A stretch of 64,000 nucleotides of DNA from NCBI RefSeq assembly GCF_000021825.1, contig NC_011729.1, positions 1,698,919 to 1,762,918 of the forward strand, written 5' to 3'. Under the pieces are notes generated by a model. The model made no database searches. It was not told the origin of the DNA and saw only the letters and a program-made list of their open reading frames with translations. The translations under genes and the position numbers were made by a program. The DNA is from Gloeothece citriformis PCC 7424 (GTDB lineage: Bacteria; Cyanobacteriota; Cyanobacteriia; Cyanobacteriales; Microcystaceae). Positions within the stretch are counted from its first letter, which is position 1. Every line of letters begins with the position of its first letter. Below, piece after piece: positions 2,420 to 43,719 of this stretch.

Positions 2420-2695
2420 TTATCTTCAATAAGTGGGTCAAATAATCTTTCTATAGCCACTGCTATAGCTTGGCAGAAGATAGACTATCAAAGTAGAGTA
2501 TAAAACAAATGGGAATCTTTTGTGAATTTTTTGCTGATATTATTAAGTAAATGCACATAAATTCCCAAAAAGACTCTATTAATCCAGTAAAATTAAACAA
2601 TTTATCCCTTTTATCACTCTGGACTTCACAATACAAGCTTAAGACTTGTTACAGTGGTAAGTATAAGAAATACATTTAAGTCAGGGAGATAAACA

Positions 2696-4087
2696 ATGGC
2701 CAAACTTGTTCCTATTCCTGTCAATCGTCCCTCGTGGTGGCAAATGGTACAGTGGATTAGTGACCCCCTCAGTTTTCAGCAAAAATGGGCGAAAAAATGT
2801 GGAGATATCTTTTTGATTAACCTATGGAGATATAATGATAATCTTGTCGTTGTGGGGAGTCCTCAACTGATTCAAGAGATTTTTAACAAAGATGCTACCC
2901 AATTTGATATCGGGAGAGGTAATCAGATCGTAGCCCCTTTAGTGGGACAAAATTCTTTATTTTTGATGGATGGCACTCGCCATAAACGAGAACGAAAGTT
3001 ATTGATGCCCTCCTTTCATGGGGAAAGATTACAAACTTATGCTCAACAAATTTGTGAGATAACAAAAGAAGTAGCCAGTCAATGGCAAAAAGATAAACCC
3101 TTTATTGCCCGAACTGTGATGCAGGATATTACCCTAGAGGTGATTATACAGGTAGTTTTTGGTTTGCGGGAAGGGGAAAGATATCAAAAAATTAAACCCT
3201 TATTAGCCGCGATGCTCAATATGATAGATTCTCCTTTACCTTCAAGTTTTTTATTTTTAAGGTTTTTACAAAAAGATTTAGGAGCATGGAGTCCTTGGGG
3301 AAAATTAAAGCACCGTCAACTGCAAATTAGAAAACTTTTGGAGGCAGAAATCGAAGATAGACGGACTCACAACTTTATCGGAACAGATATTCTCAGTTTG
3401 ATGATGGCTGTAAGGGATGAAAATGGTGAACCGATGAGTGATTTAGAATTAAAAGATGAACTGATGACCCTCTTATTTGCTGGTCATGAAACGACCGCTA
3501 CGATCTTAGCTTGGGCGTTTTATAAAATTCATCAATTGCCAGAAGTCAGGGACAAAATTGTCCAAGAACTGGATAGTTTAGGGGAAAAACCGAATCCGAT
3601 GGAGATAGCTAAACTGCCCTATTTAAATGCAGTTTGTCAAGAAACCTTGAGAATGTATCCGGTGATTCCCGTTCTTTTACCTCGTATTACTAAAACTCCT
3701 ATGGACATTGGAGACTATCATTTTGAGGCAGGAATGGCACTGATGCCGAGTATTTATCTGGTTCATTATCGAGAAGATCTTTATCCTCAACCTCAAGAAT
3801 TTAAACCGGAAAGATTTTTAGATCGTCAATATTCACCCTCAGAATTTATTCCGTTTGGGGGGGGGAGTCGACGGTGTTTAGGTTATGCCTTAGCTCTCCT
3901 AGAAATGAAGTTAGTCCTTGGGACAATTTTATCGAGTTATCAACTGGCTCTGGTCGATAATAAGCCTGTTAAAATACAACGTCGAGGGCTTACTCTAGCT
4001 CCGGTTGGAGGAGTTCCCCTAGTGATGAAATCTAAGCGTCAACCTAAATCCCCATCCTCTCAAAAAACTGCTAGCCTAATTCCATAA
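2696..4087 (+). CDS. Cytochrome P450
   Basis: Helix-I AGHETTA, ExxR (ETLR), and the heme-Cys loop [14 protein letters not shown]. Confidence 0.9.
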
Positions 4088-4109: not shown

Positions 4110-5513
4110 ATGACCTCTATGACAAAAACTGTTTCTGGCTCTAAAACTCCGGGTTTTCTACAACAAATTAATTGGGCGTTTGATCCTGTAAGCTATTTAG
4201 AAACCAATCATCAAAAATATCCCGATCTCTTTTTCACCCAGGCAGCGAGTGGAAATTATCCAATCGTCTATATTAGCCATCCCCAAGGGATACAACAAAT
4301 TTTAACCAATGATAAAAAACTCTTTTTGGCTTCTTCAGAGACTAACGATATTTTTCGTCCGTTACTCGGAGATTATTCCCTAATTTTATTAGAAAAAGAG
4401 CCTCATCAACAACGACGACAGTTGTTAGCTCCTCCTTTTCATGGCGAAAGATTATACAGTTATGGTCAATCAATCTGTAGAATAACTCAAGAAGTGATGA
4501 ATCGGCTAGGGGTAGGCAATCAGTTTACTGCTCGTAAAATAACTCAAAGTATCACAATGCAAGTGATCTTAGAAGTCGTTTTTGGCATTTATGAAGGAGA
4601 AAGATATCAACAACTGAAGACACTTCTCGGAAAAATGTTAGATATTTTCAATTCGCCTGTGTCTTCTGCTTTCCTTTTATTTTCGGCACTGCAAATTAAT
4701 TTAGGCTCTTGGAGTCCTTGGGGACAATTTTTACGTCAGAGAGCAAAAATTGATGAGTTAATTTATCAAGAAATAGCAGAACGTCGAGCTAATTTTGATC
4801 CCAATGCAACCGATATTCTCTCTTTATTAATGTCAGTTCGCTATGAAGACGGACAACCCATGACTGATAAAGAATTGCGTGATGAGTTGATGACCTTACT
4901 TGTTGCTGGCCATGATACCACGGCCACGGCGATGGCTTGGGGTTTATATTGGATTCATCATTTGCCAGAAGTCAAAGAAAAACTCTTACAAGAACTGGCC
5001 ACATTAGGAAATAATCCTGATCCGATGGAGATGGTTCGCCTTCCCTATTTAAGTGCTGTTTGTAATGAAACCCTCCGTATCACTCCAGTGGCCATGTTAA
5101 CTTTTCCTCGCATTGCTCAAGAACCGGTAGAGGTGATGGGATATACTATCGAACCCGGAACAGCCGTGTTAGGATGTATGTTTTTAACTCATCAACGAGA
5201 AGATTTATATCCTAATCCTAAACAATTTAAACCGGAGCGTTTCCTCGAAAATAAATATTCTCCCTATGAATTTATTCCTTTTGGGGGTGGCGCTCGTCGT
5301 TGTGTTGGGGATGCTTTAGCTCCTTTTGAGTTAAAGTTAGTTTTAGGGACTATTATGTCTAATTATGAACTTTCTTTAGCAGATAATCGCCCAGAAAAAT
5401 TACAACGACGAGGCTTAACTTTAGGCCCGGCCAGAGGAGTCAAAATGATTTTTAACGGAAAACGTCAACAAAAATCAGTTATGAGTCAAGAGTCATTAGT
5501 TAGTAGTCATTAG
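4110..5513 (+). CDS. Cytochrome P450, tandem paralogue
   Basis: AGHDTTA, ETLR and FGGGARRCVGDALA. Same architecture as the upstream P450, starting 23 bp after it. Confidence 0.9.
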   Translation: MTSMTKTVSGSKTPGFLQQINWAFDPVSYLETNHQKYPDLFFTQAASGNYPIVYISHPQGIQQILTNDKKLFLASSETNDIFRPLLGDYSLILLEKEPHQQRRQLLAPPFHGERLYSYGQSICRITQEVMNRLGVGNQFTARKITQSITMQVILEVVFGIYEGERYQQLKTLLGKMLDIFNSPVSSAFLLFSALQINLGSWSPWGQFLRQRAKIDELIYQEIAERRANFDPNATDILSLLMSVRYEDGQPMTDKELRDELMTLLVAGHDTTATAMAWGLYWIHHLPEVKEKLLQELATLGNNPDPMEMVRLPYLSAVCNETLRITPVAMLTFPRIAQEPVEVMGYTIEPGTAVLGCMFLTHQREDLYPNPKQFKPERFLENKYSPYEFIPFGGGARRCVGDALAPFELKLVLGTIMSNYELSLADNRPEKLQRRGLTLGPARGVKMIFNGKRQQKSVMSQESLVSSH

Positions 5514-5525
5514 TAACCAAACATC

Positions 5526-5554: not shown

Positions 5555-5826
5555 ATAGATAAGCTGTCACGCACTTAAATTATTTATTGAAGGGTGGGAA
5601 GTGTGGGGAGTGTGGAGACGATCGGGAGTAGCTTGACGGGTTATTTCTCCTCTTGAGGATATATAGCAGCTTTGCAGGAGGCAGCTTTGCTCTCTGGCAG
5701 GAGGATAAAAGTTTACTCCCATGTTTGTTTGAGGTTTGAAAAATGTCCTAACCTCCTTGGCGTTTGCTATAAAAATTAAATGCGTCTTAGCTTAGGCTCT
5801 CCCGTACCTGTGGTGATAAGTACGGC

Positions 5827-6489
5827 TTATTTAAATAAACAAGCTAATAATTTTTCTCTCATGAATTTAAAATTGCTAAATCCATAACTTTGACGAAGAA
5901 TTAACTTAATTTTATTGTTTAATCCTTCCATTACTCCATTGCTTGTTCGATTAAGAAAATAATTACAAATATTCTGAAGATGAAGTTCTAAAGTCTCAGC
6001 CGTTTTTCCGAAAAAAACTCTGGCTAATCTTAACCATTTTTTGAGTTTTTTTAAACCTTCTTTTACCGTTCTTGTGTTTTCATATATATTTCTCAGTTCT
6101 TCTTTCAATTCATAAGCAATACTCAAACAAGGATAGCCTCTTAATAGCTCTCCTAAGTCTTTTTTTTCTTCTTCAGTTAAATTGACCTTATTCTTAAGTA
6201 ATAAATAGCGGTTTTTTAAGCCTTTTAACTTTAATTTAAGTCGCAAGTGATTTAAGGCTTTATGAACTAACTTCATGACATGAAACCTATCAATTACGAC
6301 TAGAGCATTAGGAAAAACCTCAGTAATAACTTTTTTAAATCCTCCCCACATATCGACACAAACCTCTTTAATATTTTCTCTAATTGAAATTGGAGCTTGT
6401 TTTAGGACTTCTATAATCTCTTCACTTTTATGGGAATCTATAACTTCTAATAGTGAGCCTTCATCTAGATTACTGAGTACGGTAACCAA
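5827..6489 (-). pseudogene. ISL3 transposase, C-terminal DDE part
   Basis: It continues the ISL3 fold (VIDRFHVMK…). The reading frame is displaced relative to the upstream part. Confidence 0.6.
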
Positions 6490-6527: not shown

Positions 6528-6977
6528 CTAATCTTTCTGGTTTTCCCCAGTCTTTTTTTTTTGTTTAGCTATTCTTTGAAAAATATTTTGTACTTGTTCA
6601 GGACTTAATTGTTCATTTTTACTGACTTGCTCTACAGTGAGTTCTTTGACTTTTTCATAAATATGCTCTTCATAACGTTTAGTATAGTTTCTTCGCCTGT
6701 CTATAAAATTTAAAATTTCAGTTGGATATTTACCGCATTGGGAGCAGATAAATTGGCGACGTGGAACTTTCAGGTAAACTCCTTGACCTAAAATTGATAA
6801 ATCTCTAACTAAAATAGGGCGGATTTGATGAAGATTATCTGTATATGTTTGGCAATGAGGACAAGAAATTCCTTCGTTTATAAAATCTAATGTTAATAGA
6901 ATAAATCCTTCTTGTTGTTGACAAGTTAATACAGTTACAAAGGGAAGATGAAGCAAGCTATCAAGGTGAAAATCCAT
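6528..6977 (-). pseudogene. ISL3 transposase, N-terminal part (zinc-finger/HTH region)
   Basis: MDFHLDSLLHLPFVTVL start and CPHC...CSQCG zinc-binding pattern typical of ISL3 transposases. It ends just before a T10 homopolymer (~6549-6558). Confidence 0.6.
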
Positions 6978-7102
6978 AGACTCTTCGGGGGTAAAACGTA
7001 GCTATCGCTACATTTTACCCCATTATGTTGCAAGACCCGTTTTTGCTTAAGCGCGGGCTAAATAATATCAATTGTTAAAAATCAAACTAAACTATAGGTT
7101 TT

Positions 7103-7127
7103 GATGCGTTGGGAACGCATCCTACAA
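7103..7127. repeat. Palindromic repeat family 1 copy
   Basis: gatgcgttgggaacgcatcctacaa. Confidence 0.7.
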
Positions 7128-7149
7128 TTTCAAATTTTACAAAATTGGG

Positions 7150-8004
7150 CTAATCTTCAATTTCTAAGGCTAATTGATAAAGGTGACGACGGGGAAGAGA
7201 GGTTAATTGGGCTAAGTGACGACTCGCTTGCGATCGCGTCATTCCTTCTTCTAAAAGATGGTGTAATTCTATCTTTAATTGCTCCGGTGATAAGGTCTGT
7301 TTTTCATCTAATATTGCTCCCTCAATAACTATAGTAAATTCCCCTTTAGGAGAATGAGTTTGATAGAAAGCGATCGCTTCTTTTAAAGTTCCTCGCCAAA
7401 GTTCCTCATGAAGTTTAGTTAATTCCCTCCCTAAAACAATTTTTCGGGAATATCCTAACCCTTCTCCTAAATTCTCTAGGGTTTGTAATAGACGGTGGGG
7501 AGCTTCATAAAAAATTAGAGTGCGAGTTTCATGGGAGAGAGAACTAAGGCGATCGCGTTTTTCTCCTTCCTTAGTCGGTAAAAACCCCTCAAAAATAAAT
7601 CTATCCGTCGGTAAACCCGAAACCGCCAAAGCAGTTATAGCAGCAGTCACCCCAGGAATAGGAATAACGGAAATATTTTCCTGTACACAAGCTTTCACCA
7701 AATCATAACCCGGATCAGAAATACCCGGCATTCCCGCATCCGTCACCAAAGCAATATTTTCGCCTCTTTTTAACCGAGAAATTAACTCTAATGACCGAGA
7801 AAAACGGTTATGGTCGTGATAACTGATCTGAGGCGTGGTAATTTGAAAATGTTGTAATAACTTCCCTGTATGACGAGTATCTTCTGCTGCGATCGCATCT
7901 ACCTTTTGTAATATTTTAACCGCCCGGAACGTCATATCCTCCAAATTTCCGATCGGCGTTCCCACAACATAAAGACACCCCTGTTTTAACTCATCTGTGT
8001 TCAT
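7150..8004 (-). CDS. rsmI: 16S rRNA (cytidine1402-2'-O)-methyltransferase RsmI
   Basis: The N-terminal LYVVGTPIGNLEDMTFRA motif and full-length tetrapyrrole-methylase fold typical of RsmI. Confidence 0.9.
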   Translation of the reverse strand: MNTDELKQGCLYVVGTPIGNLEDMTFRAVKILQKVDAIAAEDTRHTGKLLQHFQITTPQISYHDHNRFSRSLELISRLKRGENIALVTDAGMPGISDPGYDLVKACVQENISVIPIPGVTAAITALAVSGLPTDRFIFEGFLPTKEGEKRDRLSSLSHETRTLIFYEAPHRLLQTLENLGEGLGYSRKIVLGRELTKLHEELWRGTLKEAIAFYQTHSPKGEFTIVIEGAILDEKQTLSPEQLKIELHHLLEEGMTRSQASRHLAQLTSLPRRHLYQLALEIED

Positions 8005-8020
8005 CTGCGTTCATCTGCGG
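7991..8020. repeat. Tandem decamer TCATCTG(Y)G(K) x3 overlapping the rsmI start and the rsmI/pfkB divergent promoter
   Basis: tcatctgtgttcatctgcgttcatctgcgg. Its reverse complement, GTCCGCAGATGAACGCAGATG, matches the core of the 110 bp repeat. Confidence 0.6.
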
Positions 8021-8031
8021 ACTTTTTTACC

Positions 8032-8889
8032 ATGAAAGGACTTTTTATCGGTTTATCTACCCTAGATTGTATTTATCTTATCTCTAGTATTCCCTCTGGA
8101 AATCAAAAAATAGTTGCTCTCGATCAAACCATTGCGGCGGGAGGCCCGGCCACTAATGCGGCGATTACATTTAACTATTTAGGCAATCAAACTACATTAT
8201 TAAGTGTGATCGGAAACCATCCCATTAGTCAACTCATTCGCGCCCAATTAAACCATTTAATGGTAATCGATTTAGATCCCCACTTTCAAGACAGTCCTTC
8301 AGTCTCTTCTATTTTAGTCACTCAATCGACCGGAGAAAGGGCAGTTATTGCGATTAATGCCAGTAAAATACAAGCGAGTTGTCAACACATACCAGAGGAT
8401 ATTTTAGAAGGGGTTGATATCGTTTTAATTGATGGACATCAAATGAAAGTCAGTGAAGCGATCGCCCAACAGGGCAAAAATCGTCAAATTCCTGTAGTTC
8501 TGGATGGAGGCAGTTGGAAAAATGGATTAGAAACCGTTTTACCCTATGTTGATTATGCCATTTGTTCAGCTAATTTTTATCCTCCTAATTGTCAGAATCA
8601 AGAGGAAATTTTCAGTTATTTATACCAGTTTAATATTCCTTTTATTGCCATTACTCAAGGAGAAAACCCGATTATTTATGGTGAAAAAAAACAAGTCAAT
8701 AACCTTGACGTTCCGGTTATTAACCCTGTAGATACGTTAGGAGCGGGAGACATTTTTCATGGGGCATTTTGTCATTATATTTTATCCTATGATTTTCGGG
8801 ATGCCTTAGAAAAAGCCTCTCAAATTGCGGCTTATTCCTGTCAATTTTTTGGGACTAGACAATGGATGGAAAACCGTCAAAACATTTAG
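8032..8889 (+). CDS. PfkB-family carbohydrate kinase (ribokinase-like)
   Basis: Ribokinase fold with the C-terminal DTLGAGDIFHGAF anion-hole motif. Confidence 0.8.
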   Translation: MKGLFIGLSTLDCIYLISSIPSGNQKIVALDQTIAAGGPATNAAITFNYLGNQTTLLSVIGNHPISQLIRAQLNHLMVIDLDPHFQDSPSVSSILVTQSTGERAVIAINASKIQASCQHIPEDILEGVDIVLIDGHQMKVSEAIAQQGKNRQIPVVLDGGSWKNGLETVLPYVDYAICSANFYPPNCQNQEEIFSYLYQFNIPFIAITQGENPIIYGEKKQVNNLDVPVINPVDTLGAGDIFHGAFCHYILSYDFRDALEKASQIAAYSCQFFGTRQWMENRQNI

Positions 8890-8896
8890 TTACGCG

Positions 8897-8922
8897 GAGA
8901 TGCGTTGGGAACGCATCCTACA
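8897..8922. repeat. Palindromic repeat family 1 copy
   Basis: gagatgcgttgggaacgcatcctaca, sited between convergent gene ends. Confidence 0.7.
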
Positions 8923-8935
8923 TAGAGATTGTTCA

Positions 8936-12748: not shown

Positions 12749-14665
12749 TTAAGCCGGATGAAAATAATTATAAATTTCTTGGGCTAATTGTTCCCCAATG
12801 CCTGAAACTTCCATCAATTGATCGATCGTAGCTTGACGAATATAATCAACAGAATGAAAATGAGCTAATAATTGTTTTTGTCGCCCAAACCCTAAACCCG
12901 GAATTTCATCTAAACGCGATCGCCGACTATTCTTCATCCGTTGTTGACGATGAAAACTCACCGCAAACCGATGCGCCTCATCCCTAACCCTTCTCAATAA
13001 CTGCACCCCTGGTTGTTCAGCATCCGTCGCTAAAGGTTCAGACTCCCCAGGTAGAAAAATTTCCTCCCGTTGTTTAGCTAAACTCACAACCCGTAACTCT
13101 GACAATAAATTCATCTCCTGCAAAACCTCCACCACCGCAGACAATTGTCCTTTTCCCCCATCAATCATAATTAAATCCGGTAAATCAGACTCAGACGATA
13201 AACTCCCCTCGCCTTGTAGGAGAGGGGTTGGGAGAGAGGTTAGACTATTCCGGTTATACTTCCGAAAGCGCCGTCGGATCACTTCAGCAAGAGAAGCAAA
13301 GTCATCAGAATGACCAATTTTTACCTCTGGGTTTTTAATCTTATAATGACGATAATGTTGTTTTGCCGGAACCCCATCAATAAACACCACTTGAGACGCA
13401 ACCGCATTCGATCCTTGAATATGGGAAATATCATATCCTTCGATCCGTTTCGGTAATTCTTCTAAGTCTACAATAGCGGCTAAATCTTCCATCGCCGCTA
13501 AATTGCGATCGGCAAAACGTTGAGTTCTTTCTAACTCATACTTAGCATTGCGTTCTACCATTTCGATTAATTCCGCTTTGCTTTGCCGTTGGGGTACGAT
13601 TAGATTAACTTTTCGTCCCTTTCTCTCACTCAACCAGTCTCCTAACGTTCCCTCATCCGATAAAGGATATTGCAGCAGAATTTCGCTAGGAATTTCTACC
13701 GGATCGGCCATCCAATAATGTTCTTCTAAAACTCGTTGTAAAATAGCCCCCGGATCAGTTTGAGTGATATTATTTTCTTGGTTTTGAATATCGACAAAAA
13801 ATCCTAATCTTCCCACTAAACGACCGGCGCGAATTTGGAATAATTGAATACAGCAATGGTGTCCATCAGTAGCTAAAGCGATCGCATCTCTAGAAATGGT
13901 ATCATCCGGTAAAGCCACTTTTTGATCGCTAGTTAAGGACTCTAACGCTTTAATTTGATCTCGAATGGTAGCTGCTTTTTCAAAGTTTAATTGATTAGCC
14001 GCTTGTTCCATTTGTGAGGAAAGAGTATTAATTAATTCTCCCGTTCGTCCCTGAAAAATCATCGCCACTTGCTGAATCGTTTTATGATAGTCAGCCGGAG
14101 AAATTAATAATTGACAGACCCCCGGACACCGACCAATATCATAATTAAGACAAGGACGGTCTTTAAATAGAGGTTTAGGACGTTGACGCAAGGGAAAAAT
14201 CCGTTTAATCATTTGCAGAGTCGATCGTAATAAACGGGTATCCACATAGGGGCCATAATATCGATCTTTCTCGTTATCTAAACGGCGTTTACGGGTAATA
14301 AAAATCCTCGGATAATCTTCTGACCAAGTGATACAAACATAGGGATATTTTTTGTCATCTTTAAGCAGAACATTAAAATAAGGTTGATGCTGTTTAATTA
14401 AATTAGCTTCTAAAGCAAGTGCTTCTGCTTCCGTATCCGTAACAATAAATTCTATATCGGCCACTTGCTGAACCATTAAAGCAAGACGGGGACTCAATAC
14501 ATGAGAATTGCGAAAGTAAGACCGAACCCGCGATCGCAATTTTTTTGATTTTCCAATATAGAGAATATCCCCATTTTTATCCCGCATAAAATAAACACCG
14601 GGTTCTGGGGGAATTTCTTTGAGTCGGGTTTCTAATTTTTCTGATTCTTTAATAAGCGGTAGCAT
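12749..14665 (-). CDS. uvrC: Excinuclease ABC subunit C
   Basis: GIY-YIG N-terminus ([29 protein letters not shown]), a UvrBC region, and RNaseH-like plus HhH C-terminal domains. Confidence 0.95.
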
Positions 14666-14685
14666 AAAAAAACTTTCTTTCTTTG

Positions 14686-14720
14686 TTCGTTCGTTCGTAG
14701 TTGTTACTCTAGCCTATTTT
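14686..14720. repeat. Repeat family 3 partial copy
   Basis: gttcgttcgttcgtagttgttactctagcc. Confidence 0.4.
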
Positions 14721-14740
14721 AACTACTATATTTTTTATAT

Positions 14741-14850
14741 AATTGTCCGCAGATAAACGCAGATGGACGCAGATGGGATACTTATTACTAACATAAGTCT
14801 ACGGATGAAATGATAGGGGATTTAGTTTGATTTGTGCAAGACTGATGCAA
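14741..14850. repeat. ~110 bp repeat (family 6), copy A, in the uvrC leader / ruvB 3' region
   Basis: aattgtccgcagataaacgcagatggacgcagatgggatacttattactaacataagtctacggatgaaatg…gatttgtgcaagac. It is roughly 80 % identical to the copy at 29438-29540. Confidence 0.75.
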
Positions 14851-14861
14851 AAGTGATCAGC

Positions 14862-15962
14862 TTAATTTATTTTACGGTTGAATATATAATCATAGCCTAA
14901 ATGTTGATAGGCGGCTTCCGTTGCTATTCTGCCTCTAGAGGTTCGATTTAAATACCCAATTTGTAATAAATAAGGTTCATAAACTTCCTCAATGGTTTTG
15001 GCATCTTCTCCCGTTGCGGCAGCCACCGTTTCTAACCCGACCGGCCCCCCTCGAAACTGCTGTATAATTGTATCTAAAACTAATCTATCCGTCCAATCTA
15101 AACCCCGACTATCCACATTTAATTTATCTAACGCTTCTGCCGCTAAAGCCTCTGTAATCGATTCTATCTTTTTAACTAGGGCATAATCTCGGACTCGCTT
15201 TAATAAACGGTTAGCAATACGAGGAGTTCCCCTAGAACGTCGGGCAATTTCTAACGCCCCCTCTTCCTTAATTTTAGCATTAAGAATCTTTGCCGTTCTT
15301 AACACAACTAAACAAAGTTCATCCACCTCATAAAATCTGAGGCGTTGAATTAACCCAAAGCGATCGCGCAAAGGTGAAGTTAATGCCCCTATTTTAGTGG
15401 TTGCTCCGATTAAGGTAAAGGGAGATAAAGGAATACTGCGAATTTTGGCAGATTTACCCTTTCCGGTGGTAATATCAAGACGTTGATCTTCCATAGCCGG
15501 ATAAAGTAATTCTTCACTCATACGGTTGAGACGATGAATTTCATCAATAAAGAGGATATCCCCAGGTTTAAGATTAATCAAAAGACCGGTAATATCTCTA
15601 GGACGTTCCAAAGCCGGGGCGGCGGTAATTTTACAATTTACCCCCATCTCAGCCGCTAAAATGAGAGCCATCGTTGTTTTCCCTAATCCGGGAGGGCCAT
15701 ACAATAAAAGGTGATCTAAAGCCTCTTTTCTGACTTTAGCCGCTCCGATGGCAATTTTCAATACTTCTTTTAATTCCTTTTGCCCGATATAATCATTCAG
15801 ATTACGAGGCCGAATAGAATCTTCTGCCGCTTCGGTTTCTTCTAACCTACCCGTTTCTAGAAGTCGATGGTCTTGATGAGGCTTATTTTTTTTTTCTGAC
15901 GGGGAAATGTGAGGGGGGTGTAAGGGGGAATGAGGATCTTGAGAAGATCTTTTAATGGCCAT
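14862..15962 (-). CDS. ruvB: Holliday junction branch-migration helicase RuvB
   Basis: Walker [13 protein letters not shown], an AAA+ core and a winged-helix C-terminus. There is also a ~45 aa basic N-terminal extension. Confidence 0.95.
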
Positions 15963-17320: not shown

Positions 17321-18286
17321 TTATGTTTGTTCCTCCTTTACAGGCACAAAGGTTTTAGTTTTGCGTTTATACTTCCAAGCAATGCCTTCAGGATCTTTAC
17401 TTTGACTCCACTCAGGAAAATCGGGGTCTGTTTTTCGCCTTCCCACTGTACTCGGATTAATTTCTAGACGCTTGGCTAAATCAGCCTGAATCAATTCTAG
17501 GTTATCGGTGTCTGAATGAGTTTGAGAGTTGAGAGTTGAATCTTGGGGGGGTGTCTGAGGTTCTTGTGATAAAGCCGTGTCTGTTTGGGCTTCTGTCTCT
17601 TGAGATGAGGAAGTTTCTGACGGCTGAGGTTCTTCGACTTGAGGAGATTCTTCCTTAAGTGCCGTGTCTGTTTGGGCTTCGATCTCTTGAGATGGGGAAG
17701 TTTCTGACGGCTGAGGTTCTTCGACTTGAGGAGATTCTTCCTCAACAGTTGACTCAGATAACTTTTCGTCGAGTTTTACGGGTGCTTCAGCAACTTGACT
17801 AACAGACAATTCACTGGAGTGGGGTTGAGTTGCAGATGACGTAATGATTAACCCAGGTGAAGTTAACGGTGTGATTTCTTCTTCTAAGAGAGGTTCACTA
17901 TCATCGAAAATACTGCCTAGAGAACTTGCAGTCAGGAAATAATAAACGATTCCTTTATCTTCTAACTGCTTACGTTGGGCAGCATATTCTTCAGCTTTCC
18001 TATCTAAAAACCGTTGAGCGGTTCTTCCTGTTAAGTCCGCTTTTATCGATAAATCCATTGGGGTGATACACCCCTTATTTTCTTTCACTAATTGGATGAA
18101 AAAAGGATTGATCTTCTCGCATCGCTTTAGCCATTGATAATTTTGCCATAGTTTGCCGGCAATGAGTAGCCCGATTAATCCTAAGATATAAGGCCATGCC
18201 GTCAGCAAAATAACCGTCGCAATCGCTAGAGGGATTAGGAGGACGAGAAAACCAGCCGTTTCACGATCTATTACTCTTCCGGTCAT
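17321..18286 (-). CDS. Membrane-anchored protein with acidic tandem repeats and a C-terminal HTH (excisionase/MerR-like)
   Basis: N-terminal TM segment. A ~26-aa unit (EESPQVEEPQPSETSxSQExEAQTDTAL) is repeated twice, encoded by 78-bp DNA direct repeats near 17530-17720. The C-terminus LELIQADLAKRLEINPSTVGRR is HTH-like. Confidence 0.55.
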   Translation of the reverse strand: MTGRVIDRETAGFLVLLIPLAIATVILLTAWPYILGLIGLLIAGKLWQNYQWLKRCEKINPFFIQLVKENKGCITPMDLSIKADLTGRTAQRFLDRKAEEYAAQRKQLEDKGIVYYFLTASSLGSIFDDSEPLLEEEITPLTSPGLIITSSATQPHSSELSVSQVAEAPVKLDEKLSESTVEEESPQVEEPQPSETSPSQEIEAQTDTALKEESPQVEEPQPSETSSSQETEAQTDTALSQEPQTPPQDSTLNSQTHSDTDNLELIQADLAKRLEINPSTVGRRKTDPDFPEWSQSKDPEGIAWKYKRKTKTFVPVKEEQT

Positions 18287-20542: not shown

Positions 20543-20701
20543 TGATGGCTTGACACCTCAGAATCAGAATCTTTCTCAACTAATTTACCGCCTTTAGTCA
20601 CGAATTATTAGTCAGGGAAGTTTAAATAATTGTTCCAATCCTGTTGGTTAGTCAATATTATTCAGGACTTACGCACTCCTGGGCTAAAAAACACTATTTA
20701 T

Positions 20702-20737
20702 GGGGAGATGCGTCGGGGACGCATCCTACAATTGGGG
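20702..20737. repeat. Palindromic repeat family 1 copy
   Basis: ggggagatgcgtcggggacgcatcctacaattgggg. Confidence 0.7.
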
Positions 20738-26623: not shown

Positions 26624-26680
26624 TAAAAATTTAATATAGCAATCAGGAATCAGATGTGAGAAATAGGTTTTTGAATCCCT

Positions 26681-26709
26681 GTAGAGACGTTGCATGCAAC
26701 GTCTCTACA
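26681..26709. repeat. Palindromic repeat family 5 (GTAGAGACGTTGCATGCAACGTCTCTAC)
   Basis: Perfect 28-bp palindrome. Two related copies lie at 50883-50910 and 50926-50953. Confidence 0.7.
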
Positions 26710-26837: not shown

Positions 26838-27293
26838 ATGTCTGAGCAATTTAAGTTTATTCTAGAGCGTTGTTCAACCAATCAACAAAAAGAGCTATTA
26901 ATTCAAATTAAATCTATTATTCTTCAAGATAGCAGAGTTAAAGAATTTCCTGAAACCCGTCACATAAAATATGGTTCAAATCAATCGAATATTTTTGCTG
27001 AAATAATTTTTTTAAAAAAGTGGGAGCATCCAAAATTATTTTTAACTTTACCTCGTGTTAATAATCAATATCAAATTACAAAAAATCGATGTAGATATGC
27101 TATAAATATTAATCCTGATGGAACTATTCCTGAAATAATATATATTTATCAAGTAAAAAAGATAAAATATGATAACAATTCTCGTCGTTTCTCTAGCCTT
27201 TTAAAAGCTTTAACAGAAAACTCGATAGATGATACAAATAATTTAGAACAACTTATAAAGTTAACTTTAGATAATAACTTAAAAAATTTGTAG
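26838..27293 (+). CDS. Hypothetical protein (AT-rich, no recognisable domain)
   Basis: 151-aa ORF with strongly AT-biased codons. Its stop codon sits inside the family-2 hairpin. Confidence 0.4.
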   Translation: MSEQFKFILERCSTNQQKELLIQIKSIILQDSRVKEFPETRHIKYGSNQSNIFAEIIFLKKWEHPKLFLTLPRVNNQYQITKNRCRYAININPDGTIPEIIYIYQVKKIKYDNNSRRFSSLLKALTENSIDDTNNLEQLIKLTLDNNLKNL

Positions 27294-27310
27294 GGTGGGC
27301 ATTGCCCACC
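27289..27310. terminator. Family-2 hairpin (GGTGGGCAtTGCCCACC) acting as a bidirectional terminator
   Basis: Perfect 8-bp GC stem exactly between the 3' ends of the 26838 ORF and thiOG. Confidence 0.5.
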
Positions 27311-27318
27311 GATATCAT

Positions 27319-29277
27319 TTATACCACCGTACCCGTCAGGGGAGAACTCGCACTCGCATAAGATTTTAAAGGCATTCTACCCGCTAAATAGGCCAGTCTT
27401 CCGGCTTGTGCCGCCATCCCCATCGCTTTCGCCATGGCCGGGGGATTTTTAGAAAGAGCGATCGCACTATTAACCAACAACGCATCAGCGCCCATTTCCA
27501 TCGCTAAAGCCGCCTCTGAGGGAGTTCCTATCCCTGCATCTACCACCACCGGAATTTTAGACTGTTCAATAATAATAGCGATATTGGCCTCGTTTTTAAT
27601 CCCTTGTCCCGAACCAATAGGCGATCCTAACGGCATCACTGTAGCACATCCGACTTCTTCTAAGCGTTTCGCTAACAGAGGATCAGCATTAATATAAGGA
27701 AGGACAGCAAACCCCTCTTTAACTAATTGTTCGGCGGCTTGTAACGTTCCGATCGGATCGGGTAATAAATATTTAGGATCGGGGATCACTTCTAACTTAA
27801 TAAAATTATTGTCTTCTTGTCCCAATAACTTCGCCATTTCTCGCCCTAACCGCGCAACCCTTATCGCATCCTCTGCGGTTTTACAGCCGGCAGTATTGGG
27901 CAACATCCAAATTTTACCCCAGTCGATCGCTTCTGCGAGTCCTTCATGGCCGGGGGCTTTCGTTTGTACCCGTCTTACCGCTACCGTCACAATTTCACAT
28001 TCACTCGCTATGACACTCTTTTGCATTGCCTCAATAGAGGGGTATTTACCCGTACCCGTCATCAAACGTGAGCGAAATTTACGCCCGGCAATGATTAAAT
28101 GATCCTCGGTTGAGGGTTCAGGAAGTTGAGGAATAGAACTAGATCCATTGACACTGGCAAATTGTAGCGGTTGAGTTCCGTTGGTATTCATAGGTGTAGA
28201 CAAGGGTTTAGAAAAAAAGCGATCGTAGCGGAAATGAGATAAAAGCGGATCGGTTTTTTGTTGCAAAATTAGATCGGCTATTAAAGAAGCAGTCACGGGT
28301 GCTAATAAAATGCCATTGCGATAATGTCCCGTTGCCAAGACTAAATTATCACAAAATCCTCTGCCTAAAATCGGTAATTCATCCGGAGTCCCCGGACGAA
28401 ACCCCCACCAGAATTCCTCTATTGGCCAATTTTCTAGGGCAGGATAGAGACGAATAGCCCGATCTAAAAGGGTTTTGATGCCGTTTGGGGTATTGCCAGA
28501 AGTCCAGTTTACCTCTTCTACTGTCGCCCCAATAATTAACCGTCCGTCTTGTCTAGGCACTAAATAAGTCCCTGGCCCATATAATACCCGTTGTAAGGGT
28601 AAGGGTTGATGGGGTTCTCTAGGCATTCTTAAGGATAACATTTGTCCTTTGACCGGACGCACCGGCAAGGGTAATAATTGATTAACCCAAGACCCACTGG
28701 CTAATACATAAGTTTGGCCTTCTATTTCTCCTCTAGAGGTTAAAATACTGCTCACTTTCCCCTGTTTTTGGGCGATCGCCTCGACAGTTACCCCCTCAAG
28801 TACATTTACGCCTAAACGTTGGGCGGCTTGATGTAACGCTTTCATCAGTTGCCGGTTGTCGACTTGTCCATCTTCGGGATACCACCAACCCCCCACCACC
28901 TCAGAACCGAGTCCGGGTTGATAATGGTTGATCCCCTCTTTATCCAACCAGGTTGCATCCCCTTGAGACTTGGGAATGTCAAAAACTGGCGCGAGGATAC
29001 CACAGGGAATATAACCTACTTCTAAAGCGCTTAAGTCTTGGAGTTTACGAACCCATTCCGGATACAACCAACGAGACTTTAAACATAAGTCTAACATTGC
29101 TCCTGGGGGGAGTTCTTCCGCGTGGGGGGCTAACATTCCGGCGGCGGCGTGACTGGCGGCTTGTTGAAAGTCTTGACTGATGACGGTTACGGTTGCGCCT
29201 CGCAGTTTGAGATCAACGGCGATCGCTAACCCGATAATTCCCCCACCAATAATAACAATTTCACTGGATGAATTCAT
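27319..29277 (-). CDS. thiOG: Bifunctional glycine oxidase ThiO / thiazole synthase ThiG
   Basis: The N-terminus is an FAD-binding Rossmann ([13 protein letters not shown]) ThiO/DAO domain of ~370 aa. The C-terminus is ThiG ([13 protein letters not shown]…). This fusion is common in cyanobacteria. Confidence 0.9.
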
Positions 29278-29437
29278 ATTTTATAACTAATAATGCTTAA
29301 TCTCTAATTATTTTTTTAATTTGAATTAAATGGAAATACTATAATGTAATATCATTATTCTTCCTCTTGAAGTTGTTTCTTAAAATTCTCTAAATCTTCT
29401 AACGGCTTTGTTATGTCTGTTTCTTAGATTTTTTGAA

Positions 29438-29540
29438 TAATTGTCCGCACCCTATAGCGGATAAACGCAGATGAAATACTTATCACTAACATAAGTCTAC
29501 AGATGAAATGTTATAAAATTTTGTCGGATTTGTGCAAGAA
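29438..29540. repeat. ~110 bp repeat (family 6), copy B, in the thiOG leader
   Basis: aattgtccgcaccctatagcggataaacgcagatgaaatacttatcactaacataagtctacagatgaaatg…ggatttgtgcaagaag. Confidence 0.75.
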
Positions 29541-29734
29541 GTTTCTTGATAGCGGTAAGTAAGTAGAGAGTGACTCTTTTTAAGCGATCGATAGCTAAAA
29601 CCTGCTGGTTGCAGCATTGCCTTCAATTCCCGAATTTTTTTAGGCACGACTTTTCAAAACTAATCTGAGTAAATCTCTAGATTTACTAGCACCTCATTCA
29701 TTTTACCTGATTTGAGAGGAGATTATAGAGAGCC

Positions 29735-30172
29735 TTACGGTAAGTATTTTTGGACGACTGTCCAACCCGTAAAAGTGACCAAGAGAAACCCAAACAGAAG
29801 TATAATATTGGTGCTAATGTGAAGCGATCGCGCCCAAGGGTGTTTAGGGCTAATTTGTGTCGCGCTAATGGCTGAGATTAAGACTAACACAACCACTGAT
29901 AATCCGGCGATGAGATGGGGGGAATGACCTAAACTCCCATAGTGACCAATCGTCCCGATTATACCAATACTGAGCAATAACAAGACTAGAAAAACCATTA
30001 TTGCGCCGATCGTATAATGTAAAGGTCTTAACCATTTAGGACGGGGTTGTTTATTTGTGCGTCGGTTGTACATCCAAATTCCGCTTATCCCTAATACAGT
30101 ATAGGCTGTTAAGGATAATCCCATTGACCAAGCGGCTATTTTCCACAACCACAAAAAAGAAGGTAAGTTCAA
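29735..30172 (-). CDS. Integral membrane protein, hypothetical (4 TM)
   Basis: Hydrophobic profile only. Confidence 0.45.
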   Translation of the reverse strand: MNLPSFLWLWKIAAWSMGLSLTAYTVLGISGIWMYNRRTNKQPRPKWLRPLHYTIGAIMVFLVLLLLSIGIIGTIGHYGSLGHSPHLIAGLSVVVLVLISAISATQISPKHPWARSLHISTNIILLFGFLLVTFTGWTVVQKYLP

Positions 30173-30285
30173 TATTGTTTCCTATTAATTCGCCTTTAGC
30201 TTTTATTGTATGGCATAGAGCAAGAGTTGAACAATAGATAATGGCTACTTAATAATAAGTAAAACAATTAAGAAGATGAAAAATA

Positions 30286-30321
30286 ATTATCCATTATCCA
30301 TTATCAATTATCCATTATCCA
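30286..30321. repeat. Heptamer array (C/A)ATTATC x5 abutting the stop codon of the downstream dehydrogenase gene
   Basis: ccattatccattatcaattatccattatccat. Confidence 0.7.
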
Positions 30322-31203
30322 TTAATTTTGATAAGCTCTAATCATAGCTTGAGTGCCTTGATTTTCTCCTTGTCCGTTGTCCATTTCGGCGACTATTTTA
30401 AATAAGCGATCGGCTAAGTCAACTCCTGGAATAATATCAGATGAGCCGTTGAGCGTTTCTTTGACTAATCGAAGATCTTTAAGGATATGTTTAATCATAA
30501 ACCCTGGATTATAATCAGAGGCAGTAATTTTAGGAGCTAAATTAGTTAATGCCCAAGATCCAGCCGCTCCGGTACTACAAACTTCTATCATTAAATTGGG
30601 ATCAATTCCTTGCTGTTTAGCCATTTCTACTGCTTCACATAACCCCACCATATAAAGAGAAACTAAAGCTTGATTACAGAGTTTAACCGCTTGTCCACTC
30701 CCCACAGAACCACATAAACGGATCGTTTTTCCCATCGCTTCTAAATAGGGTTTACACTCTTGAAAATCTGGTTCATTTCCTCCTACCATAATGGTAAGAG
30801 TGCCTTTTTGTGCCCCAATATCGCCCCCCGAAATGGGAGCATCCATAAAGCGAAGATTGTGCTGTTTTAAAGTTTCTCCAATCTTAATCGCTGCCTTGCT
30901 GCCAATGGTACTAAAATCGACGATTAAAGTATTAGGTTTAGCATAATTAATCACCCCTTGCTCTCCTAAAATTACCTCTTCCACATCGGGAACATCCCCA
31001 ACACAAGTAAAAACGAGATCGGCGGTTTCTACTGCTTCCTGAATGGAAGAAACGATAATAGCCCCGGCATTTTCAGCAATTTCTACCCCAGGACGGTTAG
31101 GGGTACGATTCCAGGCTTTGACAGAATAGCCATGACGCACTAAATTGGCTGTCATAGGAGCGCCCATGACTCCAAGTCCTAAAAAGGCTAATTGTTGACT
31201 CAT
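30322..31203 (-). CDS. NAD(P)-dependent oxidoreductase, 3-hydroxyisobutyrate dehydrogenase family (MmsB/GarR-like)
   Basis: Rossmann LAFLGLGVMGAPMTANL start and the conserved family region (GSVGSGQAVKLCNQ). Confidence 0.85.
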   Translation of the reverse strand: MSQQLAFLGLGVMGAPMTANLVRHGYSVKAWNRTPNRPGVEIAENAGAIIVSSIQEAVETADLVFTCVGDVPDVEEVILGEQGVINYAKPNTLIVDFSTIGSKAAIKIGETLKQHNLRFMDAPISGGDIGAQKGTLTIMVGGNEPDFQECKPYLEAMGKTIRLCGSVGSGQAVKLCNQALVSLYMVGLCEAVEMAKQQGIDPNLMIEVCSTGAAGSWALTNLAPKITASDYNPGFMIKHILKDLRLVKETLNGSSDIIPGVDLADRLFKIVAEMDNGQGENQGTQAMIRAYQN

Positions 31204-35938: not shown

Positions 35939-35940
35939 GT

Positions 35941-36040
35941 TATGGCAGGAGGCAGGGGGCAGGAGGCAGGAGGCAGGGGGAAAGGCTTAAGCCGTTATTA
36001 GTTTTCTTCAAAAATGATGATTTGTGCCAGAGGTCTAATG
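35941..36040. repeat. G-rich tandem array (GCAGGRGG)n plus a conserved ~45-bp box (family 7)
   Basis: caggaggcagggggcaggaggcaggaggcaggggg … ttattagttttcttcaaaaatgatgatttgtgccagaggtctaatg. A paralogous block lies at 43730-43830. Confidence 0.65.
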
Positions 36041-39645: not shown

Positions 39646-39785
39646 GCTTAAGGAATCGGATATTAATCAAGTAATACCAATTCTCTATAACGTTGCATTT
39701 AATAGATCCCCCCAACCCCCCTTATCAAGGGGGGCTTTAAAGAAAAATAAATTGCATTATTAAGGAGAATTGGTATAACGCTATT

Positions 39786-39860
39786 TGTAGGGTGGGCATC
39801 GCCCACCTTAACTGGGGAATTAGGGCTTTTTCTTGTCTTCGTGCGTAACTCCTAAATACT
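39786..39860. repeat. Family-2 hairpin plus a ~50-bp conserved tail
   Basis: tgtagggtgggcatcgcccaccttaactggggaattagggctttttcttgtcttcgtgcgtaactcctaaatac. It is near-identical to the copy at 56932-57000. Confidence 0.75.
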
Positions 39861-40062: not shown

Positions 40063-40200
40063 GTCATTATTTTAATGATGGCTAATTAGGCGGATTTCAT
40101 ATAATTATGTCCGGGTACTTACCTAGTCTCATAGTTAATTAGGTGGATAGTAATAAAGTAACAATAAAGAAATAAATTTGAGTTGCCTTCGAGCAACAAC

Positions 40201-40228
40201 TAGGGAGGGCTAAAGCCCTACTACGAAC
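40201..40228. repeat. Repeat family 3 copy
   Basis: tagggagggctaaagccctactacgaa. Confidence 0.6.
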
Positions 40229-42080: not shown

Positions 42081-43719
42081 AAAAATTATGAAATATGTAA
42101 AAAATTTGTGGTATAAAAACGCTATTATTTATTCTCTTGATGTAGAAACGTTTAAGGATTCTAATGGGGATGGAATAGGAGATTTTCCCGGTTTAACCAG
42201 TTCTTTGACTTATCTTTCGGGTTTAGGAATTGATTGTCTGTGGTTGTTGCCGTTTTATCCTTCTCCGAATTGTGATGATGGCTATGATATTACGGATTAT
42301 TATAGTGTTGACCCTCGCTTAGGAAGTTTGGGAGATTTTGTTGAGTTTATGCACCGAGCAAGGGAATTAGGAATTAGAGTAATTATAGATTTAGTGGTTA
42401 ATCATACCTCGATTCAGCATCCCTGGTTTCAAGAAGCTCGCTCAGACAAAAATTCTAATTATCGACCCTATTATGTTTGGTCAGAAAATCCCTCAGAATC
42501 TCATCCTGATTTAATCGCTTTTCCGACAGTAGAAGATAGTGTTTGGGAATATGATGAAAAAGCAGAAGCTTACTATCTCCATCACTTTTATAAACATCAG
42601 CCAGATTTAAACATAGGAAATCCGGCAGTACGAGAGGAAATTCTCAAAATTATGGGGTTTTGGTTGGAATTAGGAATAGCTGGTTTTCGCATTGATGCTG
42701 CTCCTTTTTTAATTCAAGGAACTGGATTAGAAAATGTTACCCCCGAAAAGTTACAGGGTTTTCTTCAAGAAATGCGGGAGTTTATGTTATCTCGTCGAAC
42801 AGATGCAATCCTTTTAGCTGAGGCAAATGTTGAGCCAGAAAAAATCCCGCTTTATTTTGGGAAAGGGGAGAGAATGCACCTGTTATTTAATTTTATTCTC
42901 AATCAGTATATGTTTTTGGCGTTGGCTCGGCAAGATAAAACCGTTTTGGAAGAAGGGTTAAAATTGCTGCCGGAAATTCCCTCGACTTGTCAATGGCTTA
43001 ATTTTGTGCGTCATCATGATGAGCTTACCCTTGATTTTCTCAGTGGTTCTCAACAAGAAGAAATTTTTGCCGCCTTTGCTCCCGAAGAAAATATGCAGAT
43101 TTTTGGGCGGGGTGTGCGTCGGCGACTCGCTCCGATGATGAATAACGATCGCCGTCGGATAGAATTAATTTATAGTTTGCTGTTTACGTTACCGGGGACT
43201 CCTTTACTTCGGTATGGTGCAGAGATTGGCATGGGAGACGATTTATGCTTGCATGGACGAACTAGCGTAAGAACAGCAATGCAATGGACAGATGAGTTTA
43301 ATGGGGGTTTTTCAACGGCTAACCCTGACGAGCTTACTCGACCAATTATATCAGACGATGAGTATGGATATAAAAAGGTTAACGTAGCTTTTCAAGAAAG
43401 AGATCCTTCTTCTTTACTCAACTGGTTTGAGCATTTGATTCGTACCCGTCAGCAATGTCCGGAATTTGGGCGAGGAACTTGGGAAATTTTAGAAACGGGT
43501 AAATCTTGCACCTTTGCTCATTGTTGTCATTGGGAAGGGGCAACGGTTCTTGCTATTCATAATTTTAGCGATCGCCCTTGTCATGTTAATATCCCTCTAT
43601 GTAAAGGTAAGCATTTATGGGATTTATTTGGGGATCATCAATATGAACCTTCTGATCATTCGGGAGAACTTTGTGTCAATGGTTATGGGTATCGCTGGTT
43701 TCGAGTGGATGAGAGATAA
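42064..43719 (+). CDS. GH13 alpha-amylase-family enzyme (trehalose synthase / alpha-glucosidase / amylosucrase-like)
   Basis: GH13 regions DGYDITDYYSVDP, GIRVIIDLVVNHTS, GFRIDAA and the catalytic EA…/HDEL region. Confidence 0.85.
   Translation: MRNAAEKIMKYVKNLWYKNAIIYSLDVETFKDSNGDGIGDFPGLTSSLTYLSGLGIDCLWLLPFYPSPNCDDGYDITDYYSVDPRLGSLGDFVEFMHRARELGIRVIIDLVVNHTSIQHPWFQEARSDKNSNYRPYYVWSENPSESHPDLIAFPTVEDSVWEYDEKAEAYYLHHFYKHQPDLNIGNPAVREEILKIMGFWLELGIAGFRIDAAPFLIQGTGLENVTPEKLQGFLQEMREFMLSRRTDAILLAEANVEPEKIPLYFGKGERMHLLFNFILNQYMFLALARQDKTVLEEGLKLLPEIPSTCQWLNFVRHHDELTLDFLSGSQQEEIFAAFAPEENMQIFGRGVRRRLAPMMNNDRRRIELIYSLLFTLPGTPLLRYGAEIGMGDDLCLHGRTSVRTAMQWTDEFNGGFSTANPDELTRPIISDDEYGYKKVNVAFQERDPSSLLNWFEHLIRTRQQCPEFGRGTWEILETGKSCTFAHCCHWEGATVLAIHNFSDRPCHVNIPLCKGKHLWDLFGDHQYEPSDHSGELCVNGYGYRWFRVDER

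Follow-up and report, generated by a model that had tools for sequence, protein, structure and literature searches.

Paired ~119-bp repeats upstream of uvrC and thiOG in Gloeothece citriformis PCC 7424, probably miniature transposable elements of the IS702-like branch

Copies A and B and the genes around them

We analyzed a 64,000-nt stretch of the Gloeothece citriformis PCC 7424 genome (contig NC_011729.1, positions 1,698,919 to 1,762,918; hereafter, the window), in which two look-alike repeats of ~119 bp, copies A and B, lie upstream of uvrC and of a thiO-thiG fusion gene (thiOG), respectively. A preliminary description of the same DNA had reported two ~80% identical copies in the same orientation; indeed, the repeat finder pairs 14727-14841 with 29425-29539 (repeat family D4) on the same strand and without gaps, with 79% identity over 115 nt (A vs B, blastn E = 1.7e-23), and the 24 differences are clustered and lack 3-base periodicity. 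The gene assignments made in that description (uvrC, thiOG, rsmI, and pfkB) also hold: the UvrC open reading frame (ORF) is 100% identical to the protein of PCC 7424 (formerly Cyanothece sp. PCC 7424), and the others are identified by Pfam. The window has a G+C content of 39%, and the HIP1 octamer (GCGATCGC) is abundant (36 copies). The genes and the two copies are arranged as follows:

7150-8004, minus strand: rsmI (Pfam)
8032-8889, plus strand: pfkB (Pfam)
12749-14665, minus strand: uvrC, 638-aa ORF
14728-14846, plus strand: copy A (nhmmer E = 4.5e-34), in the 196 nt that separate the stop of ruvB from the start of uvrC, two minus-strand genes
14862-15962, minus strand: ruvB (Pfam)
27319-29277, minus strand: thiO-thiG fusion (Pfam)
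29426-29544, plus strand: copy B, between the stop of the DUF4079 gene and the start of thiO-thiG, both genes on the minus strand
29735-30172, minus strand: DUF4079 gene (Pfam)

The edge of the element is 63 nt from the start codon of uvrC and 149 nt from that of thiOG; the location upstream of the two start codons is as first described, and these distances replace the earlier 75-170 bp, which used a slightly narrower element. The coding capacity of A and B is limited to micro-ORFs, none of which is conserved on either strand. A third full copy is present at an unrelated locus on a plasmid of Gloeothece verrucosa PCC 7822, near an asnB-like gene, and Anabaena has one short copy; with the two in the window, these are the known copies. 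When the hairpin 20-mer was compared with a collection of genome contigs (the PCC 7424 genome is not among them), a single unrelated Flavobacteriaceae contig matched. A metagenome scan for TAATTGTCCGC-N(1-11)-GATAAACGC gave 7 matches that we judged to be mostly random (~20 are expected by chance), two of which (contigs L005 and L007) show decamer-type repeats.

A and B are modular. Read along the plus strand, they begin with a left terminus, continue with a decamer minisatellite, a 23-nt hairpin segment, and an A/T-rich spacer, and end in a right inverted repeat:

14728-14746, plus strand: left terminus of A, ATATTTTTTATATAATTGT (also written ATATTTTTTATATAATTG), at best a degenerate counterpart of the inverted repeat
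14747-14777, plus strand: decamer minisatellite of A, three units, CCGCAGATAA ACGCAGATGG ACGCAGATGGG
14829-14846, plus strand: right inverted repeat of A, GATTTGTGCAAGACTGAT; it matches the consensus at 14/18, and its outer 5 nt are diverged or truncated
29426-29443, plus strand: left terminus of B, AGATTTTTTGAATAATTG, 11/18 against the inverted-repeat consensus in a by-eye count
29444-29477, plus strand: decamer region of B, in which a small palindrome, GTCCGC-ACCCTATA-GCGGAT, replaces the first unit and is followed by AAACGCAGATGAAAT
29478-29500, plus strand: apparently nested 23-nt hairpin segment of B, ACTTATCACTAACATAAGTCTAC (equivalent in A, 14780-14802)
29527-29544, plus strand: right inverted repeat of B, GATTTGTGCAAGAAGTTT; read inwards from its tip, it matches AGACCTCTTGCACAAATC at 16/18

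The tandem motifs, the internal hairpin, and the conserved end of the preliminary description are all found where it placed them. The motif ACGCAGATG occurs in tandem at 14757 and 14767 and singly at 29465; with one mismatch allowed it is not over-represented across the window (9 matches vs 6.4 expected), and it is its tandem arrangement, rather than its frequency, that stands out. The number of decamer units is three in A, two in B, and two in the G. verrucosa copy, in which both units read CGCCGAT instead of CGCAGAT; this looks like a concerted change. The left boundary is common to A, B, and the G. verrucosa plasmid copy, and the core of the left terminus, GAATAATTG-CCGCAGAT, recurs in plasmid copies from Anabaena cylindrica and Aulosira; a left inverted repeat was not detected in A or B at ≤5 mismatches.

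The hairpin, ACTTAT-YACTAAC-ATAAGT, occupies 14780-14798 in A and 29478-29496 in B. In B, the 23-nt segment is bracketed by a 9-nt direct repeat, AGATGAAAT (29469-29477 and 29501-29509); the A. cylindrica copy does not contain the segment and has a single AGATGAAAC in its place; and the stem is not kept in the G. verrucosa copy. Because of the flanking repeat in B and the absence of the segment from the Anabaena copy, the segment looks like a small nested insertion and not a conserved structure. Elhai and colleagues reportedly described, in cyanobacteria, short tandemly repeated repetitive (STRR) heptamers and small dispersed repeats (SDR), that is, 21-27-nt hairpin inserts nested in MITE-like repeats (MITE, miniature inverted-repeat transposable element); the 23-nt segment with its 9-nt flanking duplication behaves like the SDR inserts. 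A second copy of the segment was not found within the window.

The conserved end of the two copies is GATTTGTGCAAGA (14829-14841 in A and 29527-29539 in B). The trinucleotide CTT borders copy B on both sides (29423-29425 and 29545-29547) and is a candidate target duplication of 3 bp if the left tip is placed at AGAT; no target duplication is present at A, and the G. verrucosa copy has a truncated right end. A candidate for the target-site duplication that would mark a transposable element is seen at one of the two copies in the window.

The terminal inverted repeat and its relatives

An 18-bp terminal inverted repeat, AGACCTCTTGCACAAATC, has the conserved end GATTTGTGCAAGA as its inner 13 nt. 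The 13-mer GATTTGTGCMAGA has four exact occurrences in the window, all on the plus strand, and each marks where a repeat ends on its 3′ side, the repeats belonging to two pairs that are unrelated in other respects: besides those in A and B, the occurrences at 36019 and 43799 bound repeat pair D9. A fifth copy, with one mismatch, is located at 53875. These and two left ends match the 18-bp consensus as follows (by our own calculation, chance would give ~0.003 matches per window at ≤2 mismatches):

Right end of C (36036): 17/18 to AGACCTCTTGCACAAATC
Right end of B (29544): 16/18
Right end of E (53892): 16/18
Right end of D (43816): 15/18
Right end of A (14846): 14/18
Left end of D: 14/18
Left end of F (62056): 13/18

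The ends belong, in addition to A and B, to four other short intergenic repeats of the window, C-F:

35940-36036, plus strand: C, GGCAGGA heptamer array and right inverted repeat, with a degenerate left repeat and an approximate left boundary
43719-43816, plus strand: D, both inverted repeats (AGACTTCTTGCAGAAGT ... GATTTGTGCCAGAAGTTT) and a GGGGAAA heptamer array
53798-53892, plus strand: E, degenerate left repeat AAATTTTTAGCAGAAGT and right repeat GATTTGGGCAAGAGGTAT, followed by AAT
62056-62127, plus strand: F, left repeat AGACTTCTTGTAGAAGT and AAGTCAA heptamer array, with a degenerate right end of uncertain boundary

The same terminal inverted repeat also ends full-length IS702-like insertion sequences (ISs) in other genomes. 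A 38-nt query made from the conserved end and searched against plasmids matched a G. verrucosa PCC 7822 plasmid and the ends of Acinetobacter elements with an IS5/IS1182-family transposase annotation. The Acinetobacter IS is 916 bp long, with left repeat AGATCTCTTTCATAAATC, right repeat AGACCTCTTTCATAAATC, and an AAT target duplication; tblastn with its transposase identified cyanobacterial relatives at ~45% identity, in DNA with the same termini. One of these, in Nostoc sp. C057, is a 954-bp IS with ends AGACCTCTTGCAAAAATA / AGACCTCTTGCAAAAAAG, an AAT duplication, and a transposase with DDE_Tnp_4, HTH_Tnp_4, and DDE_Tnp_1 domains; in Tolypothrix PCC 7601, a gene annotated as 'IS5-like element IS702 family transposase' has the same left end. 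In Fischerella, we found a 166-bp MITE with both ends and an AAT duplication that, used as a query, matched 42 places on 18 cyanobacterial plasmids, mostly over the inverted-repeat ends. A G. verrucosa plasmid (contig L020, 2506-5009) also contains an unannotated IS702-like element; it has ends AGACCTCTTGCAAAA..., 3-bp flanks that differ from each other, and a frameshifted transposase that is 56-68% identical to those of Nostoc and Tolypothrix, and it is interrupted by an IS4-family IS (2596-3875). The transposase of the latter was considered as the parent and rejected, because it belongs to a separate nested IS with its own 27-nt inverted repeats.

The ISs of this branch (Tolypothrix/Calothrix PCC 7601, Nostoc, Fischerella, and the Acinetobacter relative) share the end AGACCTCTTGCA(C/A)AAAT(C/A), which is matched at 14-17 of 18 positions by the right ends of A-E; the inner part of the repeat is AAAAATA in the Nostocales elements and CACAAATC in the Gloeothece version. 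The IS702-like elements score 15-16/18 to AGACCTCTTGCACAAATC, and the match in A and B falls exactly at the repeat boundary. They also resemble A and B in inserting beside A/T-rich trinucleotides and in having an inward -10-like hexamer ~27-35 nt from the tip. However, they are 916-1224 bp long (vs ~119 bp), whereas A and B lack a transposase, have a decayed left repeat, and have an interior without detectable homology to them; in local alignments of A and B with the Acinetobacter, Nostoc, Tolypothrix, and G. verrucosa elements, scores were no better than those of shuffled sequences (z ≤ 2.1). Two candidate links between the interiors were dropped: a resemblance of the left part of A and B to the sequence (T-run, ATATAAT, TTGTCC) that directly follows the left repeat in the G. 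verrucosa IS was not significant (z ≤ 1.4), and the micro-ORFs beginning MKYLSLT (B and G. verrucosa) or MGYLLLT (A) that resemble the Acinetobacter MKY... start were not retained as the remnant of a transposase N-terminus. Because no whole-element alignment is significant, the connection to IS702 rests on the position-specific match of the ends and on the module shared with the C/D family. No cognate transposase is encoded within the 64-kb window.

The related copies also reveal the layout of the family. D and its 99-bp homologue on a G. verrucosa plasmid (contig L012, 1462-1560; both repeats, AAA/AAA duplication) are complete two-ended MITEs; in the window, D is wedged between convergent genes (alpha-amylase family and EcsC-like) whose stop codons (43717-43719 and 43815-43817) overlap its tips or the TAA flanks. 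The left repeat of E is T-decayed, similar to the left end of A and B. The layout of A and B recurs in C, D, and F, each with a different array immediately inside the left repeat, and the array of E is rudimentary at most. Judging from these sequences, a tandem array just inside the left end is a trait of the family, because the arrays of C, D, and F also sit directly inside the left repeat. The array units of C and F resemble the inner end of the left repeat (GCAGAAGT/C), as if those arrays had grown by slippage from it.

According to the preliminary description, the element was consistently 5′ of genes and, if a transposable element, preferred promoters. The 5′ position rested on three cases; the six IS702-type copies of the window occupy tandem (A, B, and C), convergent (D and F), and divergent (E) spacers, that is, every kind of intergenic spacer, and a 5′ preference is absent. 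A preference for promoters is not supported by these positions. All six have the same orientation, with the left repeat at the lower plus-strand coordinates (chance, ~0.03); a replication- or strand-linked insertion bias is possible.

We favor the explanation that had been offered as the alternative, a miniature transposable element, the conserved end being the terminal inverted repeat of IS702-like (IS5 family) elements: A and B are probably copies of a ~119-bp non-autonomous, MITE-type element that belongs to, or was assembled from, the IS702-like branch of the IS5 family. An IS702-like DDE transposase would have spread the copies in trans, with 3-bp duplications at A/T-rich trinucleotides; transposition would have been two-ended, by way of the badly decayed left repeat, or would have acted on a chimera. 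The position upstream of uvrC and thiOG would then reflect tolerance of intergenic insertions and not shared regulation.

Orthologous loci and the alternatives to transposition

Both copies are lineage-specific and are missing from the syntenic loci of G. verrucosa. At the thiOG locus of PCC 7822, the synteny of DUF4079 and thiOG is kept and only the coding flanks align; the spacer contains neither a B-like sequence nor the inverted repeat. At the ruvB/uvrC locus, no A-like sequence is present in PCC 7822 or in a closer metagenomic relative (RuvB 85% identical), and the element is not located upstream of uvrC in relatives with an 80% identical UvrC. Instead, in both PCC 7822 and the closer relative an opposite-strand gene with HemolysinCabind repeats lies between ruvB and uvrC (contig L076, 7153-8562; contig L078, 1663-2814); in PCC 7424 this gene is gone and copy A is located in the shortened ruvB-uvrC spacer (14666-14861). 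The loss may be a MITE-associated deletion. Two side observations concern the thiOG locus: the region upstream of thiO-thiG (29278-29734) contains no thiamine pyrophosphate riboswitch or other Rfam family, and a short motif, CAGGTAAAATGAATGAGGTG, just past the DUF4079 stop is kept in PCC 7822.

These comparisons bear directly on the function first proposed, that is, a cis-regulatory or leader-RNA element, or a small RNA family, that would co-regulate uvrC, thiOG, and rsmI/pfkB. In its favor, the three full copies agree in their polarity with respect to the gene that each precedes (uvrC for A, thiOG for B, and an asnB-like gene for the G. verrucosa plasmid copy), -10-like hexamers are present at both ends, a G-U-rich consensus fold is possible on the plus strand, and B by itself folds well (z = -4.2). 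However, the element is not conserved at the orthologous loci despite the synteny at thiOG, the genes have no functional link, and the agreement in polarity (3/3) corresponds to p = 0.25. Rfam searches of the window and both loci gave no match at either gathering or permissive thresholds. The folds of A and B also disagree: on the plus strand A is no better than its shuffles (z = -0.5), and the minus strand gave no signal for either copy. The structure and covariation analysis of the three sequences yielded a weak consensus fold (-6.4 kcal/mol) with a covariation term that raises the energy (+0.9) and one compensatory pair in 28; in addition, G. verrucosa has lost the hairpin and Anabaena does not have it. 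We consider a shared regulatory or small RNA function to be very unlikely.

The assignment of A and B to an IS702-like MITE is itself opposed by several observations. No target duplication is found at A, whose right repeat has diverged over its outermost 5 nt; the duplication at B is CTT, whereas the reference elements show AAT; the left terminus is a poor inverted repeat (11/18 in B by eye); an unbiased local alignment of A and B with whole IS702-like elements is not significant; only three full copies, plus the shortened one in Anabaena, are known; and the orthologous spacers are wholly diverged, so no clean 'empty site' is available. Because of the poor left repeat, the lack of a duplication at A, the atypical CTT, the non-significant alignment of the interior, and the count of three full copies, a chimeric 'dead' repeat is a serious rival: a decamer-array element on the left would have fused to the solo IS702-type inverted repeat of a decayed MITE on the right, and the functionless product would have been copied by recombination, gene conversion, or segmental duplication rather than by transposition. 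This explanation is aided by the existence of the decamer array on its own (at 7990-8021 in the window, as inverted pairs on a Thiodictyon plasmid, and on many phage contigs). However, three copies in two species have the same boundaries at unrelated loci, which is easier to understand if the unit itself was mobile; the Anabaena plasmid copy has the same module order as A and B; B has its 3-bp flanking repeat; and the D-, E-, and F-type copies also have an array directly inside the left repeat (with the reservation made above for E). We regard the dead chimera as unlikely.

If A and B are MITEs of IS702-like descent, uvrC, thiOG, and rsmI/pfkB would not be tied by a common leader or small RNA, which removes a false lead, and the sequence that they share would be mobile DNA that should be masked in motif and noncoding RNA screens of Gloeothece/Cyanothece genomes. 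Under the same assignment, no fewer than six short intergenic repeats within 64 kb would have a definite parent family (IS702-like, IS5).

The insertions could nonetheless have affected their neighbors. On the minus strand, read from the tip inwards, the right repeat supplies TTGCAC together with a hexamer similar to a -10 box, TATCAT for A and TATAAC for B, and a promoter scan of the minus strand of A flagged TGCACA-17-TATCAT. The ends of the IS702-like elements have an inward extended -10 (TGGTATAAT, TGCTATAAT, or TGGTATGAT) ~24-32 nt from the tip; the hexamers of A and B are located at nearly the same offset from the tip and are directed toward uvrC and thiOG. Thus, the element could add a predicted promoter that points at these genes; should these signals be active, expression of a gene for DNA repair and of one for thiamine could have been rewired by the insertions in this lineage.

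Other bacterial MITEs (the 166-bp Fischerella element, the 98-99-bp Gloeothece D-type, and the Neisseria Correia elements) are likewise small intergenic repeats in multiple copies that do not code for protein; they end in IS-type sequences, have small target duplications, vary in presence or absence between relatives, and can carry promoters. A precedent for a promoter of a uvr gene on such an element comes from Neisseria, in which a Correia-associated promoter, described by Black et al. in 1995 (as cited in PMC11602168), reportedly transcribes gonococcal uvrB. A and B differ from these in that they are effectively one-ended, contain a decamer array and a nested insert, and are only putatively mobile. 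Cyanobacteria are rich in MITEs (PMC11602168), and in such a phylum A and B are an ordinary kind of element. A minisatellite inside a MITE is described for BrickBuilt of Porphyromonas gingivalis (PMC4596501). The likeness is the tandem array embedded in a MITE (in the A/B family the number of units varies between copies), and the differences are in the parent IS, the repeat unit, and the host; furthermore, the Gloeothece family varies in array type from member to member (decamers; GGGGAAA, GGCAGGA, and AAGTCAA heptamers). MITEs with hypervariable heptamer or decamer arrays inside one end may help to explain the origin of some cyanobacterial STRR-type arrays.

Decamer arrays and the other repeats of the window

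The preliminary description had also noted a third, partial, inverted version of the element that overlaps the first codons of rsmI. We recovered it at 8029-7987, with 81% identity over 43 nt (blastn E = 2.6e-6; nhmmer E = 1.7e-4); the similarity comprises the decamer array alone:

7990-8021, minus strand: decamer array on its own, GTCCGCAGATGAACGCAGATGAACACAGATGAG, where the start codons of the divergently oriented rsmI and pfkB are separated by 27 bp

The rsmI ATG (8002-8004) is inside this array, which encodes the first rsmI codons, and the pfkB ATG is at 8032.

Similar arrays are widespread. The pattern CCRCAGATRAACRCAGATRRR has 63 matches in 50 IMG/VR contigs vs ~2 expected (our own calculation, from 36 bits of information and ~1.2e11 positions). 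The array contigs (L024-L073, CC[GA]CAGAT[GA]AAC x2-3) have 46-68% G+C, mostly ≥53%, and are classed as viral by IMG/VR, phage genes having been checked in L043 only. Three in-phase units are present in 39 of the 58 distinct arrays, and an inverted partner follows 16-74 nt downstream in 20 of 58; within a contig the arrays are co-oriented, except for inverted pairs in L059 and L068. Approximately two thirds begin ≤25 nt from the stop of a same-strand ORF (≥90 aa), a rough figure because spurious reverse-strand ORFs are common at 55-68% G+C. On the tailed-phage contig L043, palindromic pairs of arrays are located in the spacers on either side of a head-tail adaptor gene and upstream of the tape-measure gene:

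3327-3403: array pair
6306-6399: array pair
6976-7066: array pair

Further examples are at L019 1503-1650 and L007 1720-1810. Similar arrays, some as inverted pairs, are found on Thiodictyon, Skermanella, Anabaena, Aulosira, and Dolichospermum plasmids, that is, on cyanobacterial, alphaproteobacterial, and gammaproteobacterial plasmids. Direct reading of the sequence shows that a run of three 10-nt units gives every frame an ATG and a TGA, though only on the strand of the array. Rfam searches of four phage contigs with the array gave no match, nor did a literature search with the decamer sequence strings, and we found no transposase that could be assigned to the array.

It is conceivable, if improbable, that (CC[G/A]CAGAT[G/A]AAC)n is an independent, strand-oriented functional module, and not junk, that was merely picked up by the Gloeothece MITE. 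The array could be a widespread intercistronic element, similar to repetitive extragenic palindromes (REP), that acts at the RNA level (processing or stability, or stop and restart of translation); another possibility is that it represents the end of a transposon family, shared by phages and their hosts, that has gone unrecognised. A cross-phylum, phage-borne array of this kind may merit a study of its own.

The same arrays raise the question of whether A and B are REP-type palindromes, mobilized by a REP-associated tyrosine transposase (RAYT), or a plain cyanobacterial STRR locus. The window is rich in GTAG-tagged palindromes and heptamer arrays (repeat families D3, D5, D6, D10, D11, D13, and D16, of which D5, D11, and D16 combine the tag with a palindrome), and decamer arrays elsewhere form inverted pairs. 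However, A and B have no GTAG or CGTC tag and are not palindromic, the 115-nt conserved unit reaches far beyond the array, and we saw no RAYT gene with decamer arrays on either side. The tandem unit of A, B, and the rsmI array measures 10 nt, as opposed to the 7 nt of STRRs, although C, D, and F do carry heptamers. Such an origin is very unlikely. Likenesses to a DnaA box, a LexA site, a Pho-box/OmpR-type operator, a CsrA site, attC, and a Tn7 end were also considered, and none of the defining features fitted.

The GTAG-tagged palindromic (REP-like) families of the window, which include GTAGGATGCGTYCCCRACGCATC, TGTAGGGTGGGCAYTGCCCACC, and GTAGAGACGTTGCATGCAACGTCTCTAC, and the plentiful STRR-like heptamer arrays (TAATGAC, ATTATCC/ATTATCA, AACAGTT, and others) have the following positions:

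7093-7130, 8889-8926, 20697-20734, and 47191-47228: GTAG-type repeats
27286-27310, 39783-39807, and 59910-59934: GTAG-type repeats
26667-26708 and 50869-50952; 40200-40227 / 46996-47023: GTAG-type repeats
5478-5516, 30283-30327, 47232-47281, 48826-48919, and 50736-50802: STRR-like arrays
50952-50987, 53891-53949, 59940-59968, 60064-60091, and 62234-62369: STRR-like arrays

An inverted pair of AACAGTK arrays, one facing the other, occupies 62234-62369. The segments 3382-4014 and 4808-5440, 1426 bp apart, are 71% identical over ~550 nt and are probably tandem paralogous genes. At 17557-17730 there is an 87-nt tandem duplication in perfect register (87% identity). Two dispersed pairs complete the set: 5560-5661 and 61394-61468 form an inverted pair (81-84%), and 39795-39854 and 56940-56999 form a direct pair (85%) that abuts a GTAG-type palindrome.

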